Of a stretch of 64,000 nt of DNA, positions 45,001-64,000 are shown piece by piece. Below the pieces are notes generated by a model. That model made no database searches and was not told the origin of the DNA. It saw nothing but the letters and a program-made list of their open reading frames with translations. Position 1 is the stretch's first letter. The number at the start of each line of letters is the position of its first letter. A program made the translations under genes and the position numbers. The DNA is from Catajapyx aquilonaris (Eukaryota): contig JYFJ02000115.1 of assembly GCA_000934665.2 (NCBI GenBank), positions 1 through 64,000 of the forward strand, in the 5' to 3' direction.

Positions 45001-48000
45001 TGATGTTAGTACTTTTAGTGACATTAACAACCTGTTTTCAAAGGAATTTAAGGCTGTGTGATAGTGTTACCCTGTCACTAAAATTATTGATGCACAACTG
45101 TTAGGAAGGATATTTTTGCATGAGTTATGGCACTCAAAATTTGGGAGTGATACTACAAGTACATTAGCATGAATAATTTTAGTTACTGTACAAAAAGTAA
45201 ACGAGCAGTATCACTCTTGCTGTTCTTAGGTTAGCTAAGTACTAACTGATTTGTGGAATACTACTAACATGTAGTACTTGCATGTGAATTGGGAACTTAG
45301 GCTGGGATTGTAGTATGAGTAGGACAGATTCATTAGGAGGGTGGGGGTTAGGGAGTAGTCTTACCTGGTGGTGCTGATTGTGCCAGAGTAAGTGTTGGGT
45401 TGTCCTTTGAATCTGTGCGTGTGGAGGTGGAAGTGATAGCTCAGGCTGCGGGGGCCAACCAGGCATCATCCAGTACCACAACTGCTGCACAGGCTGCTGT
45501 AGCACAGGCCCAGGCCGCCAGCCAGCAGAAGCAGGACCCCAGCGGAGGAGGGGCCGCTGGATCCGCACCAGGGGTCAACAGTTCCCAGGATGCCAGTGCC
45601 CAGGGCAACCAGCAGAGCTGTAAGTTTGGCTACCCTGGAAACATAATGTCAACAATGGACATGTATGGTGGGACATTCTTTTTGTTCTCCCCAGCTCCGA
45701 GCCACGGCAGCAATGGGAATGTCAACACCATGCAGCCGCCACCAGGGATGATGGGAGGAGGTATGCCACCACCCTTTGGCGCCATGCCCTTTGGTGGGCC
45801 CCCACCATTTGGAATGCCACCTCCTGGTATGTGGAAAGTGTTCTAATCGTTAGGCTGGTGAACGGAGAGATGGTGATGGTAACTTGCATGACCATTGCTA
45901 CATTTATTCAGCAAAATTCCAAGTTGAGATTCAGCGTTGTTTTGTTAGCCATTAATAACAGACACAGGCATTCATGGTGTTGGCTTTCAGCCAAGGTCGT
46001 GCTAGAGCAGAAGAATCCATCACACATGCAGTGGGTTTAGCAAGACATAAATACTTTTTGTTTGCATAATTGAAATTTATCCAGCTTAGATAATGCAAAC
46101 AATGGTTCAGATCGTATGTTCGTCTGAGCCTAGACGCTCACGTCCTAGCCTTTTGTAACCCAGCTGAAACAGTGGAATTTATCACTGATGGAATGTCAAG
46201 TGGTGCAGGTTTGAGGCAGTTGTTTGCAGCACTCATCCGGGAAATGCTGTGACCTTCACTTGGGTGACGTGTTTGTGTTGCAAAGCGCCAAAGTCTGGTT
46301 ATTCAGAGACATGCCATTTAAATTTCCTTCCTATAATCATTCAGAGCTACGTCACTGCCTTTAGAGATAATGTGAATGCATAGGATGCCAGTCACTTGCC
46401 TTCTGTCATAGATCAGAGGATGAATTGTTAGTGAGACGGCATTGACAATGGTATGTTAATTGTATGCTGATAATGATGTGGTAGCCTTTAGGATGTCTTC
46501 TTTTACTTGTTTTTCACTTGATGTGTTATATTCTCTGCAGGTTACCCAGGATACCCCGGGTTTGGGATGCCCTCCGGCATGCCCCCTCCAGGTTGGGGTG
46601 TTCCAGGTCCTGGAATGGGTCCACCAGGGATGGCCATGGGTGCTGGAGGAGGGGCTTCTCCAGCTATTCCAGGGACGCAAGATATCAACTTGGCACACGT
46701 ATGCAGTTTTTTCATGTTAATGAAATGATCTTGACACTTCTGTGTGTCATATGTGAATAGGTACCTCTGCCCTTGGATCAGGGGTTTGGTCAAGAATTTG
46801 ACAGTCACAATGTTATTTATTCGGATGACTTGTAGGTGGATCCTGACCTCCATGCTCGTGCGATGGAGTGGTCCGAGCACAAGGCCCCAGATGGTCGTTC
46901 CTACTTTTACAACGCCAAGACTGGGGAGAGTGTGTGGGAGCGTCCTCAAGCCATGAAGGACATGGAGTCAGCCATGAAGGGAGGGGGAGCCAGAGCTGGA
47001 AGTGGTGCCATGTCTGGAGCTGGAACACCTGCAGGAGCAACTGCAGCAGGATCTCCTATGGGTCAACAGATGGTCATGGATGGAGTCCCAGGAGAGATGG
47101 AGGTTGGGTTAGGTGTGGGTGTGGGAGGGCAGATTCCAGGTGTAGGTGCAGATCAGCAGGTGGAGCAGCCAGCGCAGGCAGCTTCCCAGGCCCCGATGGT
47201 GCTTCACAACGGAGAGGGGATATCTGCTGCAGCTGCGGCAGGTATGCTGGGTGAGATGATGCATCTGAAGGCAGAGGAGAAGGCTGTAATCATGGAGATG
47301 GAGAAGCAGCAACTGGCTCACCATCAGCAAAGGCAGCAGGCTGACATAGAAGCTGGGCTGACTGCAGCCAAGGTGAAGGCCAAGCTGGAGGATGCTGAAA
47401 AAGCTAAGGAGGCACCAAAGATCCAGGACAGGTCCCGCCCTGTCTCAAGCACACCAGTTCCAGGAACTCCATGGTCAGTGGCTTAAGCTTCCTGTCCTTG
47501 ACTCATTCAGTCAGCCCTGAATAAAATCATTTTGTTTCGTAATGTTTTTGGTTTGTCCACTGCAGCTAATGTGTTCTTGTGCCGTTACTTTCCAGGTGTG
47601 TGGTGTGGACAGGAGATGGTCGTGTGTTCTTCTACAACCCTTCATCCCGGACATCTGTGTGGGAGCGACCTGATGAGCTGCTTGGCCGGCAGGACGTGGA
47701 CAAAATGGTGCAAAGCCCACCAGAGGCCGTTCAGCAGTCAGCGGAAAAGAACAAGAAGGCAGCTGCCGCTGCTGCTGCCCAGGCTGCAATTACATCATCT
47801 TCCCAGGCAGGTGAGGACGGAGCTGGTGGGGACAGCAGTGAGGAGGAGCCAGCCCCCAAAAAGGCCAAGGTGATCAAGGAGGACGGTAAGGATGGTCTAG
47901 ACGGGGAGAAACTTGGAGGAGAGAAGAAGCAGATTGACATGGGAAAAGAAGCAGCCATCGAGGCCGAGGTCCGTGCAGCTAGGGAGAGAGCAATGGTCCC

Positions 48001-51000
48001 TCTGGATGTCCGCATAAAACAATTCAGGGAAATGCTCGCTGAGAAAGATGTGAGTGAAAAACACTGGACCAGTCTTGAATTTTTTGTACTGTATCAGCTT
48101 TCAAATCATTTATATCAGCTATTTTCAATTTTTTTCTACTGTGCCACATTGTTCATTTGAAATGCGAAGTTTTAATTATTCGCTAACAGTTGATGTACCT
48201 CTCTTTTTGTCAGGTGTCTGCATTCAGCACGTGGGAGAAGGAGCTCCACAAGATAGTATTTGATGCCCGGTACTTGCTGCTGACTTCTAAAGAACGCAAG
48301 CAAGTGTTTGAAAAATACGTGAAGGAGCGAGCGGAGGAGGAGAGAAGGGAGAAGCGGAACAAAATGAAAGAGAGGAGGGATGACTTCAGGAAGCTTCTTG
48401 AAGATGCTAACCTTGTTGGAAAGTAAGTTGAATACACGTCAGGACACTACTTGCTTCCCAATTCTTGTATACGTCGCTAAAGGAAAACTGGGATGCACGC
48501 ATGTCATGAAATATGCAAGCGTAATATTTTCACAGTTAACATGATTGACTTTGTTCTGTTTCCCACAGGTCCTCTTTCAGTGATTTTGCCCAGAAGCATG
48601 GGAAGGATGAGCGCTTCAAGAACATCGAGAAGATGCGTGAGAGGGAAAGCCTCTTCAATGAGTACATTTTGGAAGTGCGCAGGAAGGAGAAGGAAGAAAA
48701 GGCCCAGAGGCGGGATCAGGTAAAGACGAAAGTGAGGCCATTTTTCACCCACTCCTCCTTATCTCTCTTAATTTTCTTGCTCGTGGCTCTGCTCAGCCGG
48801 ACCACAGATACTCTTTGCCATGATTATTTCCAGACATTTAAAATTTTCGCTCTGACTGAACACAAAATGTTTTGGCCCTTTGCATTGGGGTACGTATTTC
48901 AATCATGACCAAATTTCTTTTTTTGTTTGGCTCTCAGTTGATCGTTGATGTTGATGTTGTGAGTGCATTGCAGTTGCAAAGTGTTCTGTTTTTTTCTATG
49001 TTCTTTTATTCCAGGACTACATTTTTTATTCTCTTTCAGAATGTTTTTGTGACAATGTTGTGCAATGTTGATGTCAAAATTTCTGCTTGGAATTTTACTC
49101 CAACATTACACACACAAAAATAAGTGTATTAATAACCATGTTTCTTTTTTATGGTTGTTTCTCATGCCTGTTGGTTCAGAGTATTTTGTGTGTAGTTTAA
49201 GACCATTCTGCATGCCTCTTGTAAGCTGTTGCTCTCTCAATTGACTCATATAGTTGAAGCAAAGACTCTTTATTGCCAGTTTAATATAATATTTTCACAT
49301 ATATACTTTAATTTTCAAGCCATATGAAAAGAGTCGCAAAAGTTGATATAAAGTGAGAGATTTCAAAGCAAAAAAAAATGCAACTGTAGTAATTACCAGT
49401 GAATCTTTTTTATTGCCCCCACACTTCCAATAATGGTAACCACAAAACAAAAAAAGATGTAGCTAAAAAAGAGCTCTGTTGTGATATACTCCCACTCGCT
49501 CCACTCGCAGCGCTCATTTTTCGAAGCAGCGTCCGCCCCAACATTTGCAGTGTTCAGACACACTGAGCCTTCCTACTACCACTACTACTTCTACTACTAC
49601 ATCCGGCTATGCGTCGTTGTGAAGGCCCCCGCCAGTTGAGAACCATGTTGCGTCCAAATATTCCTAGCCAAGTACATTATGGGATAAGCTCTCTCAGGGC
49701 TAAGAAGCCAGAACTATGGCCGTGTGCGGGTGAAGTTGCCTACCGGTACTGAATCCTTAATTTACCAGTTTTTGGTTTTTTACCTATTTATGCCATTATT
49801 CTTACTGTTTCTTTCATTATTATTGGGCTCTATCCAAAGGCCATTCTGTAATTAGAGAGAGAAGAAAAAGATAATAACCTCTTTTGAAGGCCCACTTGTT
49901 TGTCAATTAAGCGCTTGTGCCTTGGGCTGAGGATTTCTTACCATCATTTGTTGTTGTGATTGTTGTTCTCTCATGTGCTTTTTTTAAGCCTCTTGTAACA
50001 CACAGTAAGAGAAAAAAAAAAGTGCTTGCAAAAAAAAAAAAAAAAGTGTTGATGGAGAGGCATAGTTCACCAGGAATTTGAGCATTGCTATTAATAACGG
50101 AATGGAATTTGTCAGTCAAAGTTACCAGAGCTCAGATTCCTTGTGGATTCTAATGGAGTTTTTCCTTGTTTTTTTGTTCCTGTCAGCAGAAGATGAGGAA
50201 GAAGATCAGATGTTGTTATTGTTAATCCAACACTTGTCAGATTTGAATTGCTTCCCCATTACTTGAGTTTTAAATGGAGCGTGACACTCACTTGCTCATG
50301 ATTTCATATCTTCAAGAGAATAGTGAGGGCAGCAATTCATGGCTGCCAGCTTGGATGTCGATTTTGAAGTGTTAACTCTAGAAATGTTCAATAACTTGTG
50401 AAAACATTTGTTCAAGACCTTGCAATATTATTTCAAGAAATTGTTTTAAGATGAGAAACACAAGAAATGAAGTAATGTTTTGTCAGAAATCAATGCAGCT
50501 GTAGCTTCCATTTCAAAGTGCATTGAGCTGCCCGAGTCACTTTGCAGAGACAGGAAGTACTTCATTTACATGCGTATAAGACAACCTGGACTCTGAATGA
50601 TTTCATAGTGCAATATTTAGTTCTCGTAACAAACCCCAGTCATAACATCTGTACCAGTACTGCAAGATCTCGCGGTTTTTTCCCTCATTTAATGAGTGAG
50701 CCATTGTCGAAGAGGAATTCAAGCCAATGTTCTGATGGTACAGTATGCTGAAACAAGGCAGTGTAGACCTGAAAAGTGACTATTACGTGGCTATCATGCG
50801 GATTCCTTGTGGGAAGATATACTGCATACAAGAAAGCAAGTAAAAATGCACTATACATGTTCTTTGCACTGAGTTGGCTTATGCGTAAGTAAATGTGGTA
50901 GTTACAATCATAACGAGTGCTTTGATGTTTCAGCCTCCAGATTGTGTATAACCCCCTTCATTTTCAGCAGCACATGTTTAACTTTCATTTTCCGCAGGGT

Positions 51001-53225
51001 AGGAAGTAAGAATATTAAGAACTCGCCATGTTGACGTTATGCTTGAACATTGTTTTTCTTTCTTCCCTCTTCCTAACCTGCCAACCAACCAACCAACCAA
51101 CCAATCATCAACCAATCAACCCACCAACAAGGTGAAGCGAGACTTCTTCAACCTCCTCCGTGAGCACCCAGAACTTGACCGCCACACCCGGTGGGGCGAT
51201 GCCAAGAAGAAGCTGGACACAGATCCCAGATACAAAGCGGTCGAGTCCAGTGCACAGAGGGAAGATTGGTTCCGAGACTACTTCAAGGCCATGAAGGAGG
51301 AGAGAAAGAGGGATAAGGAAAAGGACGGGCCGAGGGGCGGCAGCGGAGAGGGGAGAAGCAGCAGCAGAAGCAAGGACAGGGATAGGGAGGAGAGGAAGAG
51401 GGATTCGAAGGACAGCGGCAGGGAGAGGAGCAGGGACAAGGAGAAGGAGAGGGAGAGGAGAGGCAGCCGGGAAAAGGACAGGAGCAGCAGGGATGAAAGG
51501 GGAGGCGGAAGGGAAGAGAAGGAGAGAGAGAAAGAGAAGGTGGAGAAGGAAATAGAGGGAGCAAGGAAGGAAGATGAACGGGAGGAGCCTTACGGGTTAG
51601 AGGTGAGCACCCTTTTCTCCTTGTCTCTTAACGACAAATAAAAACTAAGGACGTCGTTCAGAAATATGGAAGCATTGAAAGGCTCTAACCAGTTTAGTAG
51701 TGGTGGTATGTGTATTTTTTACATGAATGGGTACTTATTCTGCAATTTATTGCCCTGCTGGCTACTCCTGTATTTTAAGGTGCTTTAGAAACAAAATTCG
51801 GAATTAGGGGTGCAATGATGAGGTAACTCACAACAGAATGACCTTGGGCTGGCAGCTGCCGACTGTCCTTAACATTAATTTCTGGATGAGCAAACCTAAC
51901 GTCTCTCTTCATTAAAAGCCAATGGAAGAAACTGCAATGGAGGAAGATGAGCAGCGTGAGAAGGAGGCTCTCGAGCGAGAGCGGAAGGAGCGTGTGAAAG
52001 CCAGTTTGCGTGAGAGGGAGAAGGAAGTGCAGCGCACCCTTGCCTCCCACCTGCGTGACCGAGACAAGGAGAGGGAGCAGCACAAGCACGACGAAGCCGT
52101 GCAGCATTTTTGTGCGCTACTGGCTGATCTGGTCCGCAACTCAGAGCTTGGCTGGAGGGAGACCAAGAGGCAGCTGCGGAAAGACCACAGATGGGAGCTG
52201 GCAGACCTACTCGACCGTGAGGAGAAAGAGAAACTCTTCAACCAGCACACAGAGATGCTGGCCAAAAAGAAGAGAGAGAAATTCAGGGAACTGCTTGATG
52301 AAACTTCAGAGGTCTCCCTCACGTCAAGCTGGAAGGAGGTCAAGAAGCTTATAAAGGAGGATCCCCGTTACAGCAAGTTCTCCTCCAGTGACCGGGTGAG
52401 TTCAAACTTCCAAAAGTGTGGGCAGACGTTGAGAAGACCAGCATGTACACATTGGCCCATGTGTAACCTTGAAACCTTGAAATTACTTGACGTATGTTTC
52501 TTATGAAAGCATGTGATTGTTAGAATGTTTCATTTCTGCAGTACAAGAATTCTGTTTTGGAAAGCGGTTTAACCCTTGCGCAAACATGTTTTGTGAGTAG
52601 GAACCCAGGAGTTAGATCGCAATGTCATATAACCTTTGTATTCTTTGCAGAAGTGTGAACGAGAATTTAAGGATTACATCAAAGACAAGGTGGTAGCCAC
52701 GAAGGCTGACTTTCGGGAGCTACTCAAGGTAATGAACACCTCATGTTGGACCCAATCATTTGCAGAGTCTTGCATAATTTAATATTGAGATAATTTAACC
52801 AATGAACAGGATTGCGCTATGGATGGGAAGTAACAATATTTCCTAATGTGTTAAGCAGCGAACTTGTAAATTGTTCTCAGAGACCCTTATAAGATATTAA
52901 CCTGAATGCCTGCTACGGAGCTTACCTATATAAAATTTATGCGCACATCTATACGATCCGATGGATAATTTGTTGGCTTATCCCCTCTCCTCGCCAGGAA
53001 ACTAAGTTAATAACTCACAAGTCTCTGAAGATGGTTCAGGAGAACGAACAGCACCTGAGGGACATTGAGGAGATCCTGAAGAAGGACAAGCGCTACCTGA
53101 TTCTGGATGGGATCCCTGAGGAGCGCCAGAAGATGGTAATCACCTATCTGGAAGACCTGGAGAAAAGAGGTCCCCCACCTCCTCCCACAGCTTCTGAGCC
53201 TACCAGAAGACCCACAAACAAGTAA
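42001..53225 (+). CDS. TCERG1: Transcription elongation regulator 1 (CA150), 3 WW domains plus FF repeats, 15 exons, ~1340 aa
   Basis: Exons 42001-42326, 43298-43544, 44304-44417, 44531-44683, 45427-45619, 45695-45826, 46541-46698, 46836-47473, 47596-48049, 48214-48422, 48569-48719, 51132-51602, 51919-52395, 52651-52728, 52998-53225 (4029 nt). WW1 [29 protein letters not shown]3 [40 protein letters not shown]-terminal [11 protein letters not shown]. Confidence 0.96.
42827..42954. mobile_element. PIF/Harbinger-type hairpin MITE in TCERG1 intron 1
   Basis: TTA|TGGCCGGTTTCACCAAGCCCGGTTTTCAT ... ATGAAAACCGGGCTTGGTGAAACTGGCCA|TTA; TIR related to family A (GGCCRGTTTCACC). Confidence 0.85.
51081..51130 (+). 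repeat. (AACC)n microsatellite directly upstream of a TCERG1 3' splice site
   Basis: ccaaccaaccaaccaaccaaccaatcatcaaccaatcaacccaccaacaag|GTGAAG. Confidence 0.9.
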
Positions 53226-53849
53226 ATGGACACTGCACAAGTAAAAGTGTACTACTACATATAATTACGCCATCCCATTTTGTTGGGAGAGAAGGGACCC
53301 CTTTAAGCTGTAGATTAGATAGTAATTATTATTTTTCTGCCTGGCAAACCATGAATGTCATTTTCCCCTTTCAAACCGTGTCTGTTTTGTGGATGTTTTT
53401 ACGGCTTATAGTGAAATATGCATAGTTGTTTTTTTTTTTTCAATGTTTTTTTGTAAGTCAACAACAGGAGTTTTAGGCATAATGCTGCTCCAATGTAAGG
53501 ATTAAAAATATATATAAAAATCAAACATTGCCTCAGTCACCCAACATTTTATTCCAAATTCCAGCTACAGCGTCACATACCGTCACAAGCCATGCAGTGT
53601 CAGGTGATGCTACAGCCTGGCTGCATGGAATTGTCAGAGTTATAGTAACATTTTCCACGTGGGAATATTTTCACTGACAAGTTAGACCAAAAGTAAAATT
53701 GTCACAGAAATATCATTGGGATTGTATTAAAAGTCTAGTGCATTACACTGATCCTGTTTTCAGCCGTTTCAAGACAAATTTATTAGACGTCAGTAAGGTG
53801 TGCTGTGAATTTGGACAACGATTTTTTTCCCCCTTGCTCCACTACTGTA

Positions 53850-55090
53850 TTAATATTCAAGTGCGAAAGGGTAGTGCTTGTGGTCCTTGTAATAGTCACA
53901 CCCTAGGATGCGACCGTTGAAATCAAGGTTGTCAATCTCAATTATGTCTCGAGGAGTCAACTTGAAGTCAAACACGTCGAAGTTCTCCTTGAGGCGGTGG
54001 GCCTTGGTGGACTTTGGGATGGGGAGGTCCTCACGCTGAATGTGCCAGCGGAGGGTCACCTGAGCTGGAGTCTTGTTGTACTTGGCTCCTATCTTCAGCA
54101 GGACAGGCTCCTGCAGAAGCTCGCGGCGATTGGCACGATCAAGCTGGCCTCCAATTGGGCTGTATGCCATCAGAATTATCTGGATGGGGAATATGAAATG
54201 ATGCACTTTGCAGCTTCATGAATATATTGCAATTTTGAAAAGGTTTTGCCCCATAATAGTTCTAGTTTGGGGTGAACTTGTGATGCCCATTATCTAATCC
54301 AAGATGACAAGTAAATTGAGAGAAAAGTGCACTCACGTCATTCTTTTTGCAGAAAGCCAAGAGTTTTTTCTGGTTGAGGAAAGGATGACACTCAACCTCG
54401 TTAACAGTGGGCTTGACAGTGCAGGAGTCCAGGATTCGTTGCATCTGTGCATGGTTGAAATTTGAGACCCCTATCGACTTGCACAGGCCCATCGCCTTGC
54501 ATCGCTCCATTTCCTTCCAGGTGTCCACGTAGTCCACATCAGAGTAGACAGAGTCAGGACCAAAGGCCTCGTTGCCAGTGCCAGGCTTGAATCCCATGGG
54601 CCAGTGGATCAGGAACATGTCCAGAGGGCCCAAGCCAAAGGTCTCCACCGCCTTCTTGCACATGGGCACCACCATATCTTTGTCGTGGTGGTAACACCAC
54701 AGCTGCATTTGGTTAAGAATTTCAAGTGTCAAGCCTTACCACAAATCAATACATATTTCACTTTTGTCGTCAAACCTTGGTGGTGATGAAGACATCCTCA
54801 CGCTTGATGACACCTTCATCAATCTTGGCCTGGATTCCCTGTCCAATTTCCTTCTCGCACTTGTAAAAGTAGGCGCTGTCAAAGTGGCGGTAGCCTATGT
54901 TGATGGCACTCTTTACAGCATCCACCATCTCCTTGGCATGGTCAGGGTCGAACTGCAAGGAGGAATTAGATGATCAAAATACCTTTTGTCATCCGCATGT
55001 TACTCCTCAACTCACCGAGAAGGATCCCATTCCTAAGGCAGGGATCTCATTGCCATCGTTCATCATCATCTTGTGGGCAAGGGTTGGCAT
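53850..55090 (-). CDS. Aldo-keto reductase family 1 (aldose reductase-like), paralogue 1, 315 aa
   Basis: Exons 55090-55016, 54952-54776, 54702-54337, 54179-53850. Catalytic tetrad in GYRHFDSAYFY, FITTKLW, LIHWP; SIGVSNF, IPKS, ENF. Confidence 0.95.
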
Positions 55091-55825
55091 TGTCGGTTGC
55101 TGTCGTGAAACTTACTCAGGAACAATTACCGGCTGCAAAAAAATTAAATTCGGGGCATTTGCATTTATCTCAGCAACCTTTTGTTTCTGATGGTAATAGA
55201 ATATTGAAATCAGTAACCCCCACGCTCCTGTCATTTCATCACGATACTTAGATAACAGTGCAATTACTATGTCACACTGGTAACATTGCGGGCATGTGCA
55301 CATCAGTAATAATATAAAAACGTCCGCATAAAAGTGACCTGGCCATAGAATTCTAATCTCTCAAGGCTGAACAACCAGGAACCAAGATTAGCAATAATAA
55401 TTGTCTCAGTATTGTGTAGATAAAATTGCGATAAAACTTACACAACCATCACATAATCTGGTTGTTCACTAATCAGATGAAATCAAAGTTGCCGCATTAT
55501 GTGACTTGACATTATGATTTCAAAATAAGTATGGAGAAAAATTATGCAGAGCATGATGCCAATATGAATATTTCCTCTTTCAATCAGAAAACAAAATATG
55601 TATGGTCGCCTTCTGGTTGGACTCCACTTTAATAGTCCCTATTTGTGACTATTTCCCTCCGAGAAGTGGAGGTTTAAAACTAATGCCTGACTAATTACTA
55701 TAATAATGATGTTACCTGTGCCGCAGCACAATAAGTGTAACGTACAGTACCTGCAGGCCAGGTGGTCCAGGAACAAAAGAGCCGTCTGTGCACCTGGCAA
55801 GTGTCCCAATAGTCAATTGCAAGGT

Positions 55826-55835
55826 GTCATGTGAC
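55826..55835. promoter_or_regulatory. GTCATGTGAC motif conserved upstream of all four AKR paralogues (also at 58669, 60557, 62643)
   Basis: Exact 10-mer seen four times, once upstream of each gene; contains the M-box/E-box TCATGTGA. Confidence 0.55.
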
Positions 55836-56104
55836 TCATATCGACAGCCTTTCATTTGCTGAAAGAAATGACCTTCATGCTGTATTTTGTTATCTTTCCC
55901 GGTTCGTGGTTTGATAGTTATTGCTTTACGTTACACACTGAGTAATTCATGGTGAACTTGGATAAAATGAGAGGTCGATATAGGCCTGTTTGTAAAGTAA
56001 AGGACAACACAGGTGTTTTTTCAATGTTTATTAAACCAAATTGATTACACATTAGCAAGGTGTACTATGAATTTTGACAGCAATAATATGCTTCACTACC
56101 ATTA

Positions 56105-57365
56105 TTAATATTCAAGAGCAAATGGGTAGTGTGGATGGTCTTTGAAATAGTCGCATCCCAGGATGCGACCGTTGAAGTCCAAGGCGTCAATCTCAGCCAT
56201 GTCTTGAGCTGTCAGCTTGAAGTCAAACACATCGAAGTTCTCCTTGAGTCGGTGGGCCTTGGTGGACTTCGGGATGGGGAGGTCCTCACGCTGAATGTGC
56301 CAGCGGAGGGTCACCTGCGCTGGAGACTTCTTGTACTTGGCTCCTATCTTCTTCAGGACGGGCTCCTGCAGAAGCTCGCGGCGATTGGCACGGTCAAGCT
56401 GGCCTCCAATTGGGCTGTACGCCATCAGAATTATCTGGATGGGGAAAATTAAAATGATGTTTCTCAAACAAATAAAACCATGAAATGATGCACTTTGCAG
56501 CTTCATTAAGTGCAATGTTATGAAAAGTTTTTGCGCCGTTCGTAGCATTGTTTTGTGGCAAACTAGTGATGCCCATTAGTATGTTGTTGTCTACTAATCC
56601 AGAGAAGAGTTGGCTCACGTCATTCTTTTTGCAGAAGTCCAGGAGTTTCTTCTGGTTGAAGAAAGGATGACACTCGACCTCGTTAACAGTGGGCTTGATC
56701 TTGCAGGAGTCGAGGATTCGCTGAATCTGCGCATGGTTGAAGTTGGAGATCCCGATGGACTTGCACAGGCCCATCGCCTTGCATCGCTCCATTTCCTTCC
56801 AGGTGTCCACGTAGTCCACATCAGAGTAGACTGAGTCAGGACCAAAGGCCTCGTTGCCAGTGCCAGGCTTGAATCCCATGGGCCAGTGGATCAGGAACAT
56901 GTCCAGAGGACCCAAGCCAAAGGTCTCCACCGCCTTCTTGCACATGGGCACCACCTTATCCTTGTCGTGGTGGTAACACCACAGCTGAATTTCAAGTGTC
57001 AAGACTTATCACAAATCAATTCATAAATTTCACTTTTGTCGTCAAACCTTAGTGGTGATGAAGACATCCTCACGCTTGATGACACCTTCATCAATCTTGG
57101 CCTTGATCCCCTGTCCGATTTCCTTCTCGCACTTGTAGAAGTAAGCGCTGTCAAAGTGGCGGTAGCCAATGTCGATGGCACTCTTCACAGCATCCACCAT
57201 CTCTTTGGCATGCTCAGGGTCGAACTGCAAGGAGGAATGAAGTGGTCAGAACACCTTTGTCACAAACATGTTAATTACTCCTAAACTCACAGAGAAGGAT
57301 CCCATTCCAACTGCAGGGATCTCATTGCCATCGTTCATCTTCATCTTGTGGGCGAGGGTTGGCAT
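56105..57365 (-). CDS. Aldo-keto reductase family 1, paralogue 2, 315 aa
   Basis: Exons 57365-57291, 57224-57048, 56984-56619, 56434-56105; same structure with intact tetrad. Confidence 0.95.
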
Positions 57366-58901
57366 TGTTGTATGTTGTTGCGAAACTTACTTTGGAACGA
57401 GATACAACTGCAAAAAAAGAAAAGTATCTTGAATTATTACAGTACAGATTTTGTTAGCACTTTATGTTTTACAATTATTTTCAGGCCAGACATTCCCAAA
57501 TGGTTTGAAAATAATGTATTATACAGTATTTATCCCACCTAATATTACCGGTAGTTAATTTATTGATGAGCAGCATGCTTAGAACAAACAAAAATTGCAA
57601 TGTCCTTGATTTCTCAAATGAAACATTAGCATTCTCTTACCAGTAATCTGAGTCAGCCCAATATTTTTATCGCACAGTTGTATGTACAGTACACTGTAAT
57701 CATATGTAAAGAGTGGAGACCCCATCTGTTCAATTTTTTTTTGTGCATTTGCAGCACTTCAGCCTGCTGTCAAAATGACGAAGGATGAAGGTTATGGGAA
57801 GGAAAATTATTATTTTTCCTCCTGGCATCTGCCATACCCTTACTGAATAATATTGCAAGCAACATATCGGAATTTACCATAGTTGCAGGAAGCTGCTACA
57901 TTATGACACGCACTGCCGCCATAAATACTGAGGCTTAATTTCCTCAAGGTCACGTCATTTATTAGTCCTCCGGTATATTTTTTCAGCCCGTGTAAATATA
58001 GACTATCCGAGTCATTCACGCAATTACGTAATTGCTGCATTTACGCGTAGTTTACATTTTTCTCGTCAGCCCTTTCTGATGGTAATAAAATATTGTAATT
58101 CGTACTTACATAACCGTGCAACTATGTCACACTCGTAATATTGCCGGCACATACGTACGTCAGAAATAATATTAAATTGTACGCATATATAAGCGACCGG
58201 CACCGTAAAATGTAGTCGTACTCTAATTACCCAAGTCCGAACAGCGTGGAACCGAGATTATCAATAATATATTGCCTCCAGTATTGTGTAGATGATATTG
58301 CGATAAAACTTGGATTGTTCACTAATAATCAGAAAAAAATCAAAGTCGCCGCATTATGTGACTTCACATCAATTGCAAAATAACGTATGGAGAACAATTG
58401 CTTCTTGTCCATATATGGAAAATTATACAGAGCAAGGTGATGGGAATTTCAATCAGAAAATGAAATATTCTAATGTGTCGCCATTTCCCTCCAAGAAGTG
58501 TAGGTTTAAAACTAATGTGTCACTAAATTGCTATTAATGATGTCACCTGTACCGCGCAGCACTAGTTCCAACTTACCTTCACGCCAGGTGATCCCGGAAC
58601 AAAAGAGCCGTCTCTTCCTCGTGCACCAGGAAATAAAAGAAGAGTCCCGAGCGGTCAATTGCAAAGTGGTCATGTGACTCACAGTGTCTATACAGCCTTT
58701 CATTTGTTGGAAGATATGACCTTCGTTCTGCAATTTTTTGTCCTGCGTAAAGTTCGCAATTTTTGTGGATTAGTTGCATTAATAATAGGCTATTGAATGA
58801 CGCTGACACTGTTGTTTTATGCATTTATTTAAACCGAATTGATTACACATCACTGTGAATTTGGACGACAATTTTTTTCCCCATCACGCTCCACTACTGG
58901 A

Positions 58902-60158
58902 TTAATATTCAAGTGTAAAAGGGTAGTGTGGATGGTCTTTGAAATAGTCGCACCCCAGGATGCGACCGTTGAAGTCCAAGGCGTCAATCTCAGCCATGTC
59001 TTGAGCTGCCAGCTTGAAGTCAAACACGTCGAAGTTCTCCTTGAGTCGGTGGGCCTTGGTGGACTTTGGGATGGGGAGGTCCTCACGCTGTATGTGCCAG
59101 CGGAGGGTCACCTGCGCTGGAGACTTCTTGTACTTGGCTCCTATCTTCTTCAGGACTGGCTCCTCCAGCAGCTCACGGCGGTTGGCACGGTCAAGCTGGC
59201 CTCCAATTGGGCTGTATGCCATCAGAATTATCTGGATGGAGAAAATGGAAATTATATGCTTCTAAAAAAAATTGCAGCTTCCTGAATTGTAACTATTATG
59301 AAAACGGTTATGCGACGATTAGTTTACACATCAATCTTATTCCAAGATGGCAAATAAATCTAGAGAAGAGTTGGCTCACGTCATTCTTTTTGCAGAAGTC
59401 CAGGAGTTTCTTCTGGTTGAGGAAAGGATGACACTCGACCTCGTTAACAGTGGGTTTGATCTTGCAGGAGTCGAGGAGTCGTTGAATCTGCGCATGGTTG
59501 AAGTTGGAGATCCCGATGGACTTGCACAGGCCCTTCTCCTTGCAATGCTCCATTTCCTTCCAGGTGTCCACGTAGTCCACATCAGAGTAGACAGAGTCAG
59601 GAGTGAAGGCCTCGTTGCCAGTGCCAGGCTTGAATGCCATGGGAAAGTGGATCAGGAACATGTCCAGAGGACCCAAGCCAAAGTTCTCCACCGCCTTCTG
59701 GCACATGGGCACCACCATGTCCTTGTCGTGGTGGTAACACCACAGCTAAAGAGGAACAAAAACGCCAAACCCTATATGTTGTACTCGTGGCAAAAATATA
59801 TGATAAAACGTCACAAATTGAATCTATCAACAAACCTTGGTGGTGATGAAGACATCCTCACGCTTGATGACACCTTCATCAATCTTGGCCTTGATCCCCT
59901 GTCCGAGTTCCTTCTCGCACTTGTAGAAGTAGGCACAGTCAAAGTGGCGGTAGCCAATGTCAATGGCACTCTTCACAGCATCCACCATCGCCTTGGCATG
60001 GCCTGGGTCGAACTGCAAGAATAAGGAACAAGTTGTCTCAAAATGCTGTCCCAAGCATATGTTAATTTCTCCTATAAACTCACCGAGAAGGATCCCATTC
60101 CAAAGGCAGGGATCTCACGTCCGTCGTTCATCTTCATCTTGTGGGCAAGGGTTGGCAT
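58902..60158 (-). CDS. Aldo-keto reductase family 1, paralogue 3, 315 aa
   Basis: Exons 60158-60084, 60012-59836, 59745-59380, 59231-58902; FDCAYFY, TTKLW, LIHFP. Confidence 0.95.
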
Positions 60159-61100
60159 TGTTGTTTCCTATTGTGAACCTGCCTCCGCCGAACAAATACC
60201 AACTGCAAAAATAATTTGGTGATTGCAGATTTGCAGATGTGTTGAATTGAAGTGTACGCTTCGGTTAGCTCCAATTTTTAGACTAGACATTCCTAATTGG
60301 TTTGAACTTGCACAATCATCAGATAATCTAATTGTTCACTAATCAGATAAAATCAAAGTCCCCGCATTATGTGACCATATGATTACCGAGAACAAGAAAT
60401 ATGCATGGTCGGCTGATTCACTAGGTGTCACCAATAGCAGCACAAGTGTAACGTACCTGCACGACTCTATAGGGTGATCCGGGAACAAAAGAGGCGTCTA
60501 TTCCTCGTGCACCCGGCAAATAAGAAAGAGTCCCAAGTCTGTTCAATTGCCAAGTGGTCATGTGACTCGTATCTGCAGCCTTTCATTTGCTGCGGAAGAG
60601 ATGACCTTCGTTCTGAAATTTTTTATCGTGTGGTTTGAAGGCTATGCCGGCCGGGGAAATCCAAGGTAGACCACTCCTCTTAGTCTTCACCTGTTACGTA
60701 ATTACAGGCTTGTCTCCATGTGCCCATCCGACCCAAAATGCAAAAGTTGCATGACCCATTACCGCAAGTGACGATTTCCCAAATTGGTTAAGCTTGTGGT
60801 CGATATGTCACTAATATTCAGTGCCGGATAGTGTTTACGTGATGATTGGCGGTATTGATCACGGCAACGGACAGTGTTTTCGTTTCCTAGCTCGTTCAAA
60901 TTACGTTGTACTACTTGCATGAGAAAAATCGAAGAAGAAAAACACCGACAATAATGTCACGTACTTCCACCAGTGTATACAACTATAGGCTGAAAATATA
61001 CATGACCTCATTGCAATTCACATAACATATTGTGCAACGTCCCTTTTTCTTTTTATTTCCGATGATACATTGCAAAGACTGCGGTACAATGCACCGTACT

Positions 61101-62269
61101 TTATTCTTCGTTGAAAGGATAATGAGGATGGTCGTTGAACCACTCCGCCTTGAGGATCCGAAAGTCGCAGTTGAGTCCGTCGACCTCTGCCATTTCTTGT
61201 GGGGTCAGCTCGAAGTCGAAGACATTGAAGTTCTCTTCCAGACGGTACGACCTGGTGGACTTCGGCACCGGTACCACGTGCCTCTGGATGTGCCATCGGA
61301 GGGTCACCTGCGCTGAAGTCTTGTCGTACTTGGATCCAATCTGCTTCAGGACAGGTTCCTCCAGCAGCTCTCGCCGGTTCTTCCTGTCCAGCTGACCACC
61401 GATTGGACTGTATGCCATCATCATCACCTGAAAATGACATATGGGACAGCGGTGGTGGCTTTTTAGGCATTCGGACACCAAATGTCTACCTGGTTCTCCT
61501 GGCAGAACTGGAGTAACTTCTCCTGGTTGAGAAATGGGTGGCATTCGACCTGGTTGACCACAGGCTTGACCTTGCAGCTGTCCAGCACCCTCTGGAGCTG
61601 CTGGCTGTTGAAGTTGGACACCCCGATGGACCTGGTCAGCCCTTGCCGGACACACTCCTCCATCTGCGTCCAGGTGTCCACGTAGTCCACATCAGAGTAC
61701 TCAGACCCAGGTGTGAACCCCTCGTCTCCTGTCCCTTCCACGAACCCCATCGGCCAGTGGATCAGAAACAAATCCAATGGACCTAACGCGAAATTCTCCA
61801 CCGCCTTTTTGCACATCTGGACAACCATGTCCGGCTTATGGTGGTAGCACCACAGCTAGAAAAATATGCCAATTCGAACACAAGCATATAGAGTGGCCAT
61901 CCGCAACTGACCTTGGTGGTGATGAAGACATCCTCACGTCGGATGGCCCCTTCTTCTATCTTGTCCTGGATGGCCTTGCCAATGTCCTTCTCGCACTTGT
62001 AGAAAAACGCGCTGTCAAAGTGCCGGTAGCCTATATCAATAGCCGATTTAACAGCCTGCACCATCTGGTCCGACTGCACTGGGTCTAACTGTGCAAAAAC
62101 AGTCGCGCACTTGAGAAATCAGCAATTAGTTTAGCAATTAGCTGCGTACCTGGAATGATCCCATGCCAATTGCTGGTATTTCTTTGCCGTCGTTCATCCT
62201 CAGCTTGTTGGCCAAAATTGGCATTCGGACCACCTCGTCCGAACCAACCTTCGCACAGCACATACCCAT
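61101..62269 (-). CDS. Aldo-keto reductase family 1, paralogue 4 (most divergent), 329 aa with N-terminal extension or 314 aa from ATG 62224
   Basis: Exons 62269-62150, 62088-61912, 61855-61490, 61427-61101; FDSAFFY, TTKLW, LIHWP, VNQVECHP, VPKS, HPHYPF. Confidence 0.93.
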
Positions 62270-63123
62270 TATTTCCCTGCAAAATATTGTCAATCCAAAA
62301 AAAAAAAAATGCAAATTATCCACTCTTAGCCAACAATATATGAAGCGTGAAATGATTCGTTATGGAAGTGTCCTTGAAAATAAAGTTTATGACCACTTAC
62401 GCAACAGGGTGGAGCAGAACTGACGGGAAATCCAACAAATATTTTTGGCACACTTTAGCACTGAGGCACGTTCACCTGCTTCACACGCGATCGCCGCACA
62501 TGTGAAAGACCACTGCAAAATTACGATTTGGTTCCCCTCACATTATTTTCCTGTTTCCCAAACCGCAGTCTCGGTAAGTTTGGATCGAAAGACGACCAAA
62601 TAAACCGCTTGTTAAACAGAAATGGTAACTCTCAGTGACTGAGTCATGTGACATCGATCGTTGGGGGGGCATATGTGGGGGTGGGACCAATGCTATCAGA
62701 AGGCTATCTTTACATTGGAGTTGAGTATGTAAGTACGTATAGTCTAATCCATCTTTGTAAGGATTTTCAGCACGAATTCCGCCTTTGCAGAAATTGCAAT
62801 TGAGGCACTCACTGCCCGATGAACAGCAGGAAGCATACATTCACAAGCTGGTCATTACCACTTATTGACTGCATAACGACACAGAGAATTGGGCATTAAC
62901 TGCTAACGAAATGAAAATCAAGAATATTTCCAAAGAGCCAATTTGCACGTACATTCCGAGTGGCTCACCCGCAGATAATGTGCGGTGTTTTCTCAACTTA
63001 TCTCCATCTACGATATCACAATGTGAGGGTCAGACAAAGTCAAGAGGTGTAATATGATAATATTTTATTTCTGGTAACATATAAAAAGAGTACAAAGATT
63101 GCCAATTAGGAATATTGGCTTGA

Positions 63124-63390
63124 TCACTTCTTCCTCTCCTTGACAGATCCGTCTTCAGTCCCAAAGTATGCCACTGCTGCCATACCAACAAACAGTCCAG
63201 TTTCGACAACGCCTGTAAATTGTTAAAAAATAATCAGAAAAGCTCTGTTTACTCTTCCATAACGGAAAGCAAATATTACACCACAGATACCTGGTATGCA
63301 CTTAATTTCTCGGTGAACTTTGTCCCAGTCTTTCACTTCCTTGAACTTCCAGTCCAGGATGAAATTGCTGTTGTCAGTAATGACAGGTCC
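63124..63390 (-). CDS. RPIA: Ribose-5-phosphate isomerase A, last two coding exons (5' part outside the window)
   Basis: Exons 63390-63291 (GPVITDNSNFILDWKF...IKCIP) and 63212-63124 (GVVETGLFVGMAAVAYFGTEDGSVKERKK*); minus-strand AATAAA at 63064-63069. Confidence 0.93.
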
Positions 63391-64000
63391 CTGTTGGTCA
63401 GAAAGAAAGAAAAAGATGGAAAACACCATAAACATATTGTTGTGTGCAGTACAAACTGTAAGTTCCTCATTTCCTAATTGTTGACATATGGACATTCTCT
63501 TTACACAAAACAGGAACAGGAAATGTAACGTGTGAGTCACTGTTATGATAACCCCCACTTTTGAAGGAAATACAATGAATCAGCCCACTTTTCAGTTGAC
63601 TTTCGTGATGCAATAACTTCGGAAAGAAAGATTCACTCCAGAAGTGTTTGCCTTCCACACACAGTTGCCTCTCAGTATGAACACACAATATTACTCATTT
63701 TCTGGTATCAGTTTCATAATGCGGTATTGTCTTGCCTAGCTTTTAAAATATTGTTTTCCACTGAAATATGTTAGCAGACAGGCACCGTCATATACAATTT
63801 CTCAATCAATAAATCATAAAAATGAGCAGACTGGGTAATAAATTATTGACCTGTGTAATTAATATCCTTAACAGTAGCCTATTAATTCTTCAATTAGCTG
63901 CCAAAATTTGTATGTAATCTGGTATGTCCTATCCAATACTCTTAGAAAATGGGTGGATGTGATGAAATCATTTGTACTAATGCAATATACTAATGTACTA

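Follow-up and report, generated by a model that had tools for sequence, protein, structure and literature searches.

A predicted dual-acylation signal on one of four tandem aldo-keto reductases of Catajapyx aquilonaris, and apparent relics of the same extension in its paralogues

Aldo-keto reductases of the AKR1 type are regarded as soluble. A cluster of such genes in Catajapyx aquilonaris raises the question of how one member came to begin with what resembles a myristoylation and palmitoylation signal, and whether this signal was gained by that gene or lost by its neighbours. The DNA analysed here (the window) comprises positions 1 to 64,000 of contig JYFJ02000115.1 (C43) of the 286 Mb assembly of this species, and it carries four intact AKR1-like genes, P1 to P4, in head-to-tail tandem on the minus strand, each with three introns in the coding sequence (CDS) at matching positions. 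P4 is 70% identical to each of P1-P3, which are 89-94% identical among themselves, and the targeting signal is present in P4 and dead in P1-P3. The explanation we prefer, which taken whole has a little better than an even chance of being right, is that P4 is an AKR anchored by two acyl groups, whose N-terminal extension was ancestral to P1-P4 and was lost in P1-P3. The P4 features on which the argument depends are the following.

61098..62269, minus strand: P4 CDS, 329 amino acids, exons 62269-62150, 62088-61912, 61855-61490 and 61427-61098, with catalytic tetrad and NADPH motifs intact.
62225..62269, minus strand: P4 N-terminal extension MGMCCAKVGSDEVVR, 15 codons, with predicted myristoylation of Gly2 and palmitoylation of Cys4 (or also Cys5).
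62277..62400, minus strand: intron of the P4 5' untranslated region (UTR), donor GTAAGT at 62400, acceptor AG at 62278-62277.
62401..62573, minus strand: P4 non-coding exon 1, whose 5' end is not fixed as the RNA contig merges here with an antisense RNA.

The start codon at issue, ATG at 62269 (context gaaataATGgg), lies 7 nt past the acceptor AG, is in frame with the Met at 62224 shared by the paralogues, and adds MGMCCAKVGSDEVVR to the protein. An earlier note on this DNA, made from the letters alone, had described an upstream in-frame ATG in strong context, and the sequence bears this out, with A at -3 and G at +4 under the start-context rule by which AUG strength is graded. RNA evidence comes from one contig set (X1), unstranded and of a type not on record, compared over 53500-63500. 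Its joint 62275-62400 (CT..AC, cut +1) corresponds to a P4 splice from 62400 to 62276, so that the exon start at 62276 suggested earlier is the acceptor actually used by a spliced contig. The joints listed also include two of the three P4 CDS introns and the splice of a P2 non-coding exon (58577 to 57407), and the P3 and P1 leaders are absent from the joints and pieces listed, outside which lie 20 further pieces. P1-P3 collapse onto one another in these contigs, and contig depths were not used for ranking the paralogues.

Over the 180 nt of contig-covered P4 leader two ATGs precede 62269, a start-stop at 62543 and a six-codon frame at 62501. Both are in frame and both stop ahead of the CDS, and in-frame stops follow; Gly2 therefore cannot be buried by an earlier AUG, this RNA-covered leader being free of open in-frame ATGs upstream of 62269. 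Splicing makes the AUG at 62269 the first frame-opening AUG of the P4 leader, in strong context, and initiation there would expose Gly2; we regard its use as the P4 translation start, as read from these sequence features, as very likely. Of the two short upstream frames, the start-stop (62553-62538, minus strand, ATG TGA) is itself in strong context and its 13-mer resembles the P4 acceptor-plus-start; the presence in P4 mRNA of both this and the six-codon frame (62501-62481, minus strand) depends on the transcription start site.

The heptapeptide MGMCCAK that begins P4 fits the strict N-myristoyltransferase (NMT) motif MG[^DEFRWY]X[^DEKR][ACGST][KR], as quoted in PMC9018777, at all seven positions, and places Cys4 and Cys5 within residues 3-6, in agreement with the earlier view that this N-terminus resembles a combined myristoylation and palmitoylation signal. 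In 140,795 bases, comprising the window and eight other stretches, the motif occurs in two of 3078 open ATG starts and only P4 has a Cys in positions 3-6; the chance of the motif together with Cys4 is about 4e-5 per start. A second copy of the extension was not found elsewhere in the genome. The Cys codon retained in the P3 and P1 relics described below is that of position 4, and among the G-alpha-o heptapeptides reported in PMC9018777 Ala6 works, Cys4 is palmitoylated and directs a fusion towards both plasma membrane and endocytic structures, whereas Cys5 alone is poor. The P4 start is well formed for dual acylation and lies inside an RNA-confirmed exon, and dual acylation of P4 itself is likely. 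After removal of the initiator Met, Gly2 would be myristoylated co-translationally and Cys4, perhaps also Cys5, palmitoylated, and the acylated enzyme would be held at the plasma membrane or on endosomes, facing the cytosol, with the remaining residues of the extension serving as a spacer.

This has to be weighed against a mainly soluble P4, in which the extension is translated as a linker, tolerated or serving some other function, that gives no working acyl anchor, or is myristoylated only, or in which translation starts mostly at Met3 or Met16. Acylation is predicted here from the sequence, and the second in-frame AUG, at codon 3, has G at -3. What we take to be an initiator-like TCAGTT at 62423 would give P4 a 5' UTR of 28 nt. 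Human AKR7A2, as described in PMC13219423, is leaky with a 5' UTR of 20 nt and not with one of 40 nt, so that the question of leakiness in P4 turns on its transcription start. The P4 5' end is not fixed by X1, whose contig runs on across a GT..AG joint of the plus strand (62574-63146) and so merges antisense RNA with P4 mRNA; the contig reaches at least 30 nt into exon 1 past the junction, which, given assembly words of 31 nt, points to 5' UTRs of at least 37 nt. With a first AUG that has A at -3 and G at +4, and with a strict motif plus two Cys residues that would be very unlikely by chance, we consider a mainly soluble P4 unlikely. The earlier idea of two P4 isoforms produced by leaky scanning is doubtful: the first AUG is strong, the codon-3 AUG stands between it and the shared Met, and the shared Met itself, weakly placed in P4 (C at -3 and +4) though with A at -3 in P1-P3, is unlikely to be a major start. 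The antisense RNA is spliced on the plus strand (donor GTAAGT at 62574, acceptor at 63146), overlaps P4 exon 1 (62401-62573) head to head and continues from 63147 into the last exon of a ribose-5-phosphate isomerase gene; it is seen in one contig, whose short side is 30 letters.

If P4 is anchored, the history of the anchor must be sought in the leaders of its neighbours, which are laid out as follows.

58899..60158, minus strand: P3 CDS, 315 amino acids, beginning at the shared Met, with Glu at the Gln183-equivalent.
60159..60202, minus strand: P3 5' leader, an in-frame relic reading G-I-C-S-A-E-A-G-S-Q-stop-E-T-T, without ATG and with TAG at 60170-60168; the acceptor at 60203 is placed by homology only.
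56102..57365, minus strand: P2 CDS, 315 amino acids.
57366..57407, minus strand: P2 leader, 42 nt, a frameshifted and more decayed relic, spliced from a non-coding exon ending at 58577.
53847..55090, minus strand: P1 CDS, 315 amino acids.
55091..55132, minus strand: P1 leader, 42 nt, with GGT AAT TGT TCC kept out of frame (2-nt deletion common to P1 and P2).

Anchored at the shared Met and without gaps, the P3 and P4 leaders match at 24 of 42 nt (p 2e-5, 100,000 shuffles), the next best of 13 offsets giving 14, and only 1 of 1000 shuffles aligned equally well. Anchored non-coding controls of P4 against P1-P3 gave 6-12 of 42 in nine of nine comparisons. Promoter and exon 1, 3' UTR and 5' intron are unalignable between P4 and P1-P3 (9/9 comparisons), as are the three CDS introns (again 9/9). 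The 14 codons that the earlier note had aligned between P3 and P4, with the ATG missing and a TAG present in P3, were quoted correctly. Whether the ATG is there depends on a single substitution and an 8-nt indel immediately following the acceptor, and the TAG is confined to P3, the same codon being CAG in P1, CAA in P2 and GAG in P4. For P1 the letters GGT AAT TGT TCC TGA reported earlier are indeed there, but they stand 40 nt before the Met and out of frame because of the 2-nt deletion that P1 shares with P2. Synonymous divergence (dS) between P3 and P4 is 1.17; within the extension the proportion of synonymous differences (pS) is 0.61, against 0.59 in the CDS, and that of nonsynonymous differences (pN) is 0.38 (binomial p 0.018 against neutrality). 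These comparisons support homology of the P3 leader with the P4 extension and its resemblance to a former coding stretch.

Might the likeness instead be chance, or a short tract of gene conversion from P4 into P3, without bearing on ancestry? P3 does match P4 better than do P1 and P2 (17 and 15 of 40), and matches of 23 and 22 out of 42 turned up when AT-rich flanks were searched freely; the significance of the P3-P4 match thus rests on its anchoring. The match sits at zero offset, however, the P3 leader is closer to that of P1 (30/40) than to that of P4, and three common changes and the deletion on the P1/P2 stem explain the greater distance of these two from P4. Chance or conversion is accordingly a very improbable account. 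Two further features of the leaders were examined and set aside. A start codon split over exons 1 and 2 in P1-P3 is ruled out, the exon-1 ends being G, with which no ATG is formed. A perfect donor-like GTAAGT occurs on the minus strand in the leaders of P2 (57392-57387) and P1 (55115-55110; both positions approximate), and is ruled out as a working donor as it leaves too little space for an intron before the Met.

Leader homology between P3 and P4 by itself gives no direction of change. A search of the genome gave 15 exon matches, roughly reconstructed as seven further AKR genes, and a quick IQ-TREE analysis was run on 88 rows (four from the window, seven from elsewhere in the genome and 77 of 120 homologues, namely those of 295-345 amino acids). 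It gives (P4,(P3,(P2,P1))) with support 99/99/88, and a clade (99) of nine AKR genes of this genome with no outside member, which the quick tree does not place firmly among insect AKRs. The likelihood ratio of loss over gain is 1.8-4.3 with substitutions only, 4.6-18 with the indel rate of the leaders and 29-363 with that of the introns, under a rough model with Jukes-Cantor substitution, uniform event time, omega 0.1-0.4 and a branch share of 0.45-0.55. The anchor was thus probably lost in P1-P3 rather than gained in P4.

The chief competing history is a gain in P4 alone, in which an 8-nt insertion past the acceptor created the AUG, the P3 leader is simply the sister UTR and P1-P3 were always cytosolic. 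Several observations weigh for it, or otherwise against an ancestral anchor. Parsimony favours one gain in P4 (one event on the tree rather than two), a prior that stands outside the likelihood ratio; the look-alike of the acceptor-plus-start 13-mer at 62553 is a possible template; and constraint on the P4 branch alone could yield both codon-position bias and pN below pS. The codon-position bias of the P3-P4 matches is in any case not significant (9/9/6 of 14; Fisher p 0.16), the P4 leader matches those of P1 and P2 marginally (p 0.044 and 0.059, with one gap) and not significantly by local alignment, and the indel rates are crude, that of the leaders resting on a single event. Nor is the extension seen in any other AKR examined: the seven further AKRs in this genome all lack an extension or MG-x-C start (an eighth, weak match, C173, with an unresolved N-terminus, is excluded), and the NMT motif occurs in none of 140 homologues, of which 131 begin with Met and 6 with MG. 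Searches with exons 2 and 3 gave only distant AKRs and no P1-P4 orthologue. The NMT and Cys rules derive from human enzymes and G-alpha-o peptides, where Cys5 alone is a poor substrate. Set against a gain, the P3 leader, neutral over a dS of at least 0.55 under that history, has nevertheless stayed free of indels and kept its Gly and Cys codons, every other non-coding part is unalignable, and the likelihood ratio is 2-18 or more in the other direction. A gain confined to P4 therefore seems to us rather unlikely.

How far back the anchor reaches is a separate matter. No relic of the extension was detected upstream of five outgroup paralogues (p 0.50-0.78). The 40-residue first exon of P4 found nothing at E 0.001 among 1.84 billion representatives and a word search gave no candidate, negatives that are weak given the short query and an apparently unsampled lineage; the ESM Atlas (recognition 2184) returned unnamed short clusters at 0.89-0.90, which are uninformative. 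The MG-x-C-C starts that the earlier note would have looked for in relatives are thus missing from the seven AKRs and 140 homologues that could be compared, and no orthologue turned up in which to look. Their absence indicates that the anchor is late, arising within the nine-gene expansion and ancestral at most to P1-P4. The earlier claim of an ancestral membrane-anchored AKR whose duplicates lost the anchor consequently stands in part: loss is favoured, but ancestry extends at most to P1-P4.

On the preferred history, loss in P1-P3 of an anchor ancestral to the four genes, the extension would have arisen once, in the P1-P4 ancestor. After the first duplication the P1-P3 lineage would have lost the AUG through an 8-nt deletion at the exon start, adopted the old family Met with its A-rich context, turned cytosolic and changed a cofactor residue from Gln to Glu. 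The dead leader would then have decayed separately, by the TAG in P3 and the 2-nt deletion in P1/P2, states which are read directly from the sequences and placed by the tree.

The enzyme carried by this putative anchor is intact. PF00248 matches three of the four P4 exons (34.2, 79 and 48.9 bits, cut-off 24), the 40-residue first exon being without a match, and the best solved-structure matches of exon 3 are aldose reductase (E 1e-32). The AKR catalytic tetrad is Asp, Tyr, Lys and His, and its motifs (RHFD....Y, ITTKLW, LIH[WF]P) are present in all four paralogues when aligned to solved AKR1 chains. The cofactor site divides them. P4 has the equivalents of Ser159, Asn160 and Gln183, which in aldose reductase contact the nicotinamide, Gln183 bonding its amide (PMC5056380). 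The Gln183-equivalent is Gln in P4, in six motifs elsewhere in the genome and in all 127 motif matches among the 140 homologues, and Glu in P1-P3, a change that maps to the same branch as the apparent anchor loss. Its positions, within the motif VNEVECH, are approximate.

59439-59441, minus strand: P3, Glu at the Gln183-equivalent.
56679-56681, minus strand: P2, Glu at the Gln183-equivalent.
54397-54399, minus strand: P1, Glu at the Gln183-equivalent.

By these motifs P4 would be an NADPH-dependent carbonyl reductase of AKR1-like type. It resembles AKR1B-type enzymes (PF00248; human aldose reductase, insect AKR1B-like) in the domain matches, the tetrad and the cofactor motifs, and among single-domain homologues insect AKRs come closest (about 52-67% identity when single exons are compared). 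It differs from them in the start motif, and the cluster differs in its long-branch clade and in the Glu of P1-P3.

Several known systems are comparable. In human AKR7A2 an extension from an upstream AUG likewise sets the location of an AKR, a shorter cytosolic form starting from a downstream AUG (PMC13219423); there, however, the targeting is mitochondrial, and a single gene supplies the two forms through leaky scanning or a second promoter; in the present cluster they are apparently split among paralogues. Arabidopsis thioredoxin h9 carries Gly2 and Cys4, spaced as in P4, on an N-terminal extension missing from some thioredoxin paralogues (PMC9311986), and FSP1/AIFM2 is a soluble redox fold brought to the membrane by Gly2 myristoylation (PMC8026611); the folds and chemistry are unrelated to those of AKRs, and acylation is reported for these proteins, predicted for P4. 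Proteins of the G-alpha-o/i SH4 type share the seven-residue code of Gly2, Cys in 3-6, a small residue 6 and Lys7, but are signalling proteins, and MGMCCAK lies outside the peptides described as tested in PMC9018777. An evolutionary parallel is trypanosomatid FCaBP, whose tandem duplicates are set apart by an N-terminal myristoyl/palmitoyl sorting peptide; a 5' stop in one Leishmania copy would make its protein anchorless, and that copy is read as a pseudogene (PMC10939215). The anchorless P1-P3, in contrast, are intact, expressed as a group and multiplied to three. Relocalisation after duplication is itself established, acylated N-termini included (PMC10939215). A myristoylated or palmitoylated AKR did not appear in the titles and abstract openings searched, mostly of the open literature, although myristoylome supplements could list one.

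Our best guess for the role of P4, drawn by analogy with AKR1C, FSP1 and thioredoxin h9, is that it reduces carbonyls that derive from lipids or are otherwise lipophilic; lipid peroxidation products are substrates of AKR1C enzymes, and FSP1 is membrane-bound via myristoylation (PMC8026611). A lipid-anchored AKR1, if real, would place carbonyl reduction where lipid peroxidation products or lipophilic hormones arise, as FSP1 is placed. The cluster would also preserve the successive decay of a targeting peptide, with loss of the AUG followed by a stop in P3 and a frameshift in P1 and P2, and so offer an unusually legible case of relocalisation after duplication. Its reach is limited, as the trait has so far been seen in a single gene of a single genome, and neither dual acylation nor relocalisation is new as a mechanism.

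The promoters share one element. The 10-mer GTCACATGAC, whose other strand contains the M-box TCATGTGA, a MiT/TFE motif (PMC6355916), has four copies in the window, one upstream of each paralogue, and is kept although the P4 promoter around it no longer aligns with the others.

62643-62652, minus strand: GTCACATGAC upstream of P4.
60557-60566: GTCACATGAC upstream of P3.
58669-58678: GTCACATGAC upstream of P2.
55826-55835: GTCACATGAC upstream of P1.

A presumed AP-1-like site, TGA[CG]TCA, overlaps GTCACATGAC in P4, P2 and P1. The kept 10-mer and the cofactor-site change of P1-P3 are compatible with a division of labour among the paralogues. A bolder proposal, which we hold to be unlikely, is that P4, dually acylated, protects plasma or endolysosomal membranes from lipid peroxidation in the manner of FSP1, controlled by Mitf/TFEB through the M-box, its sisters having lost the anchor and retuned Gln183 to Glu; were this so, P1-P4 would be a natural matched set for the effect of membrane tethering on a carbonyl reductase.

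Further AKR genes of this genome lie on C43 at about 86-89, 137-140 and 176-178 kb, and on C1764, C1588, C903 and C173. Five group with P1-P4 in the long-branch expansion, and the gene at 86-89 kb looks canonical, with a possible duplicated exon. Flanking the cluster, at about 47500-53225 on the plus strand, is a gene with WW/FF-repeat-like text, which we take to resemble TCERG1. On the other flank, 63124-64000 on the minus strand, ribose-5-phosphate isomerase A is represented by its 3' end (a 28-residue exon matching PF06026 at E 0.0017, below the cut-off); it is a pentose-phosphate gene adjoining NADPH-using enzymes.

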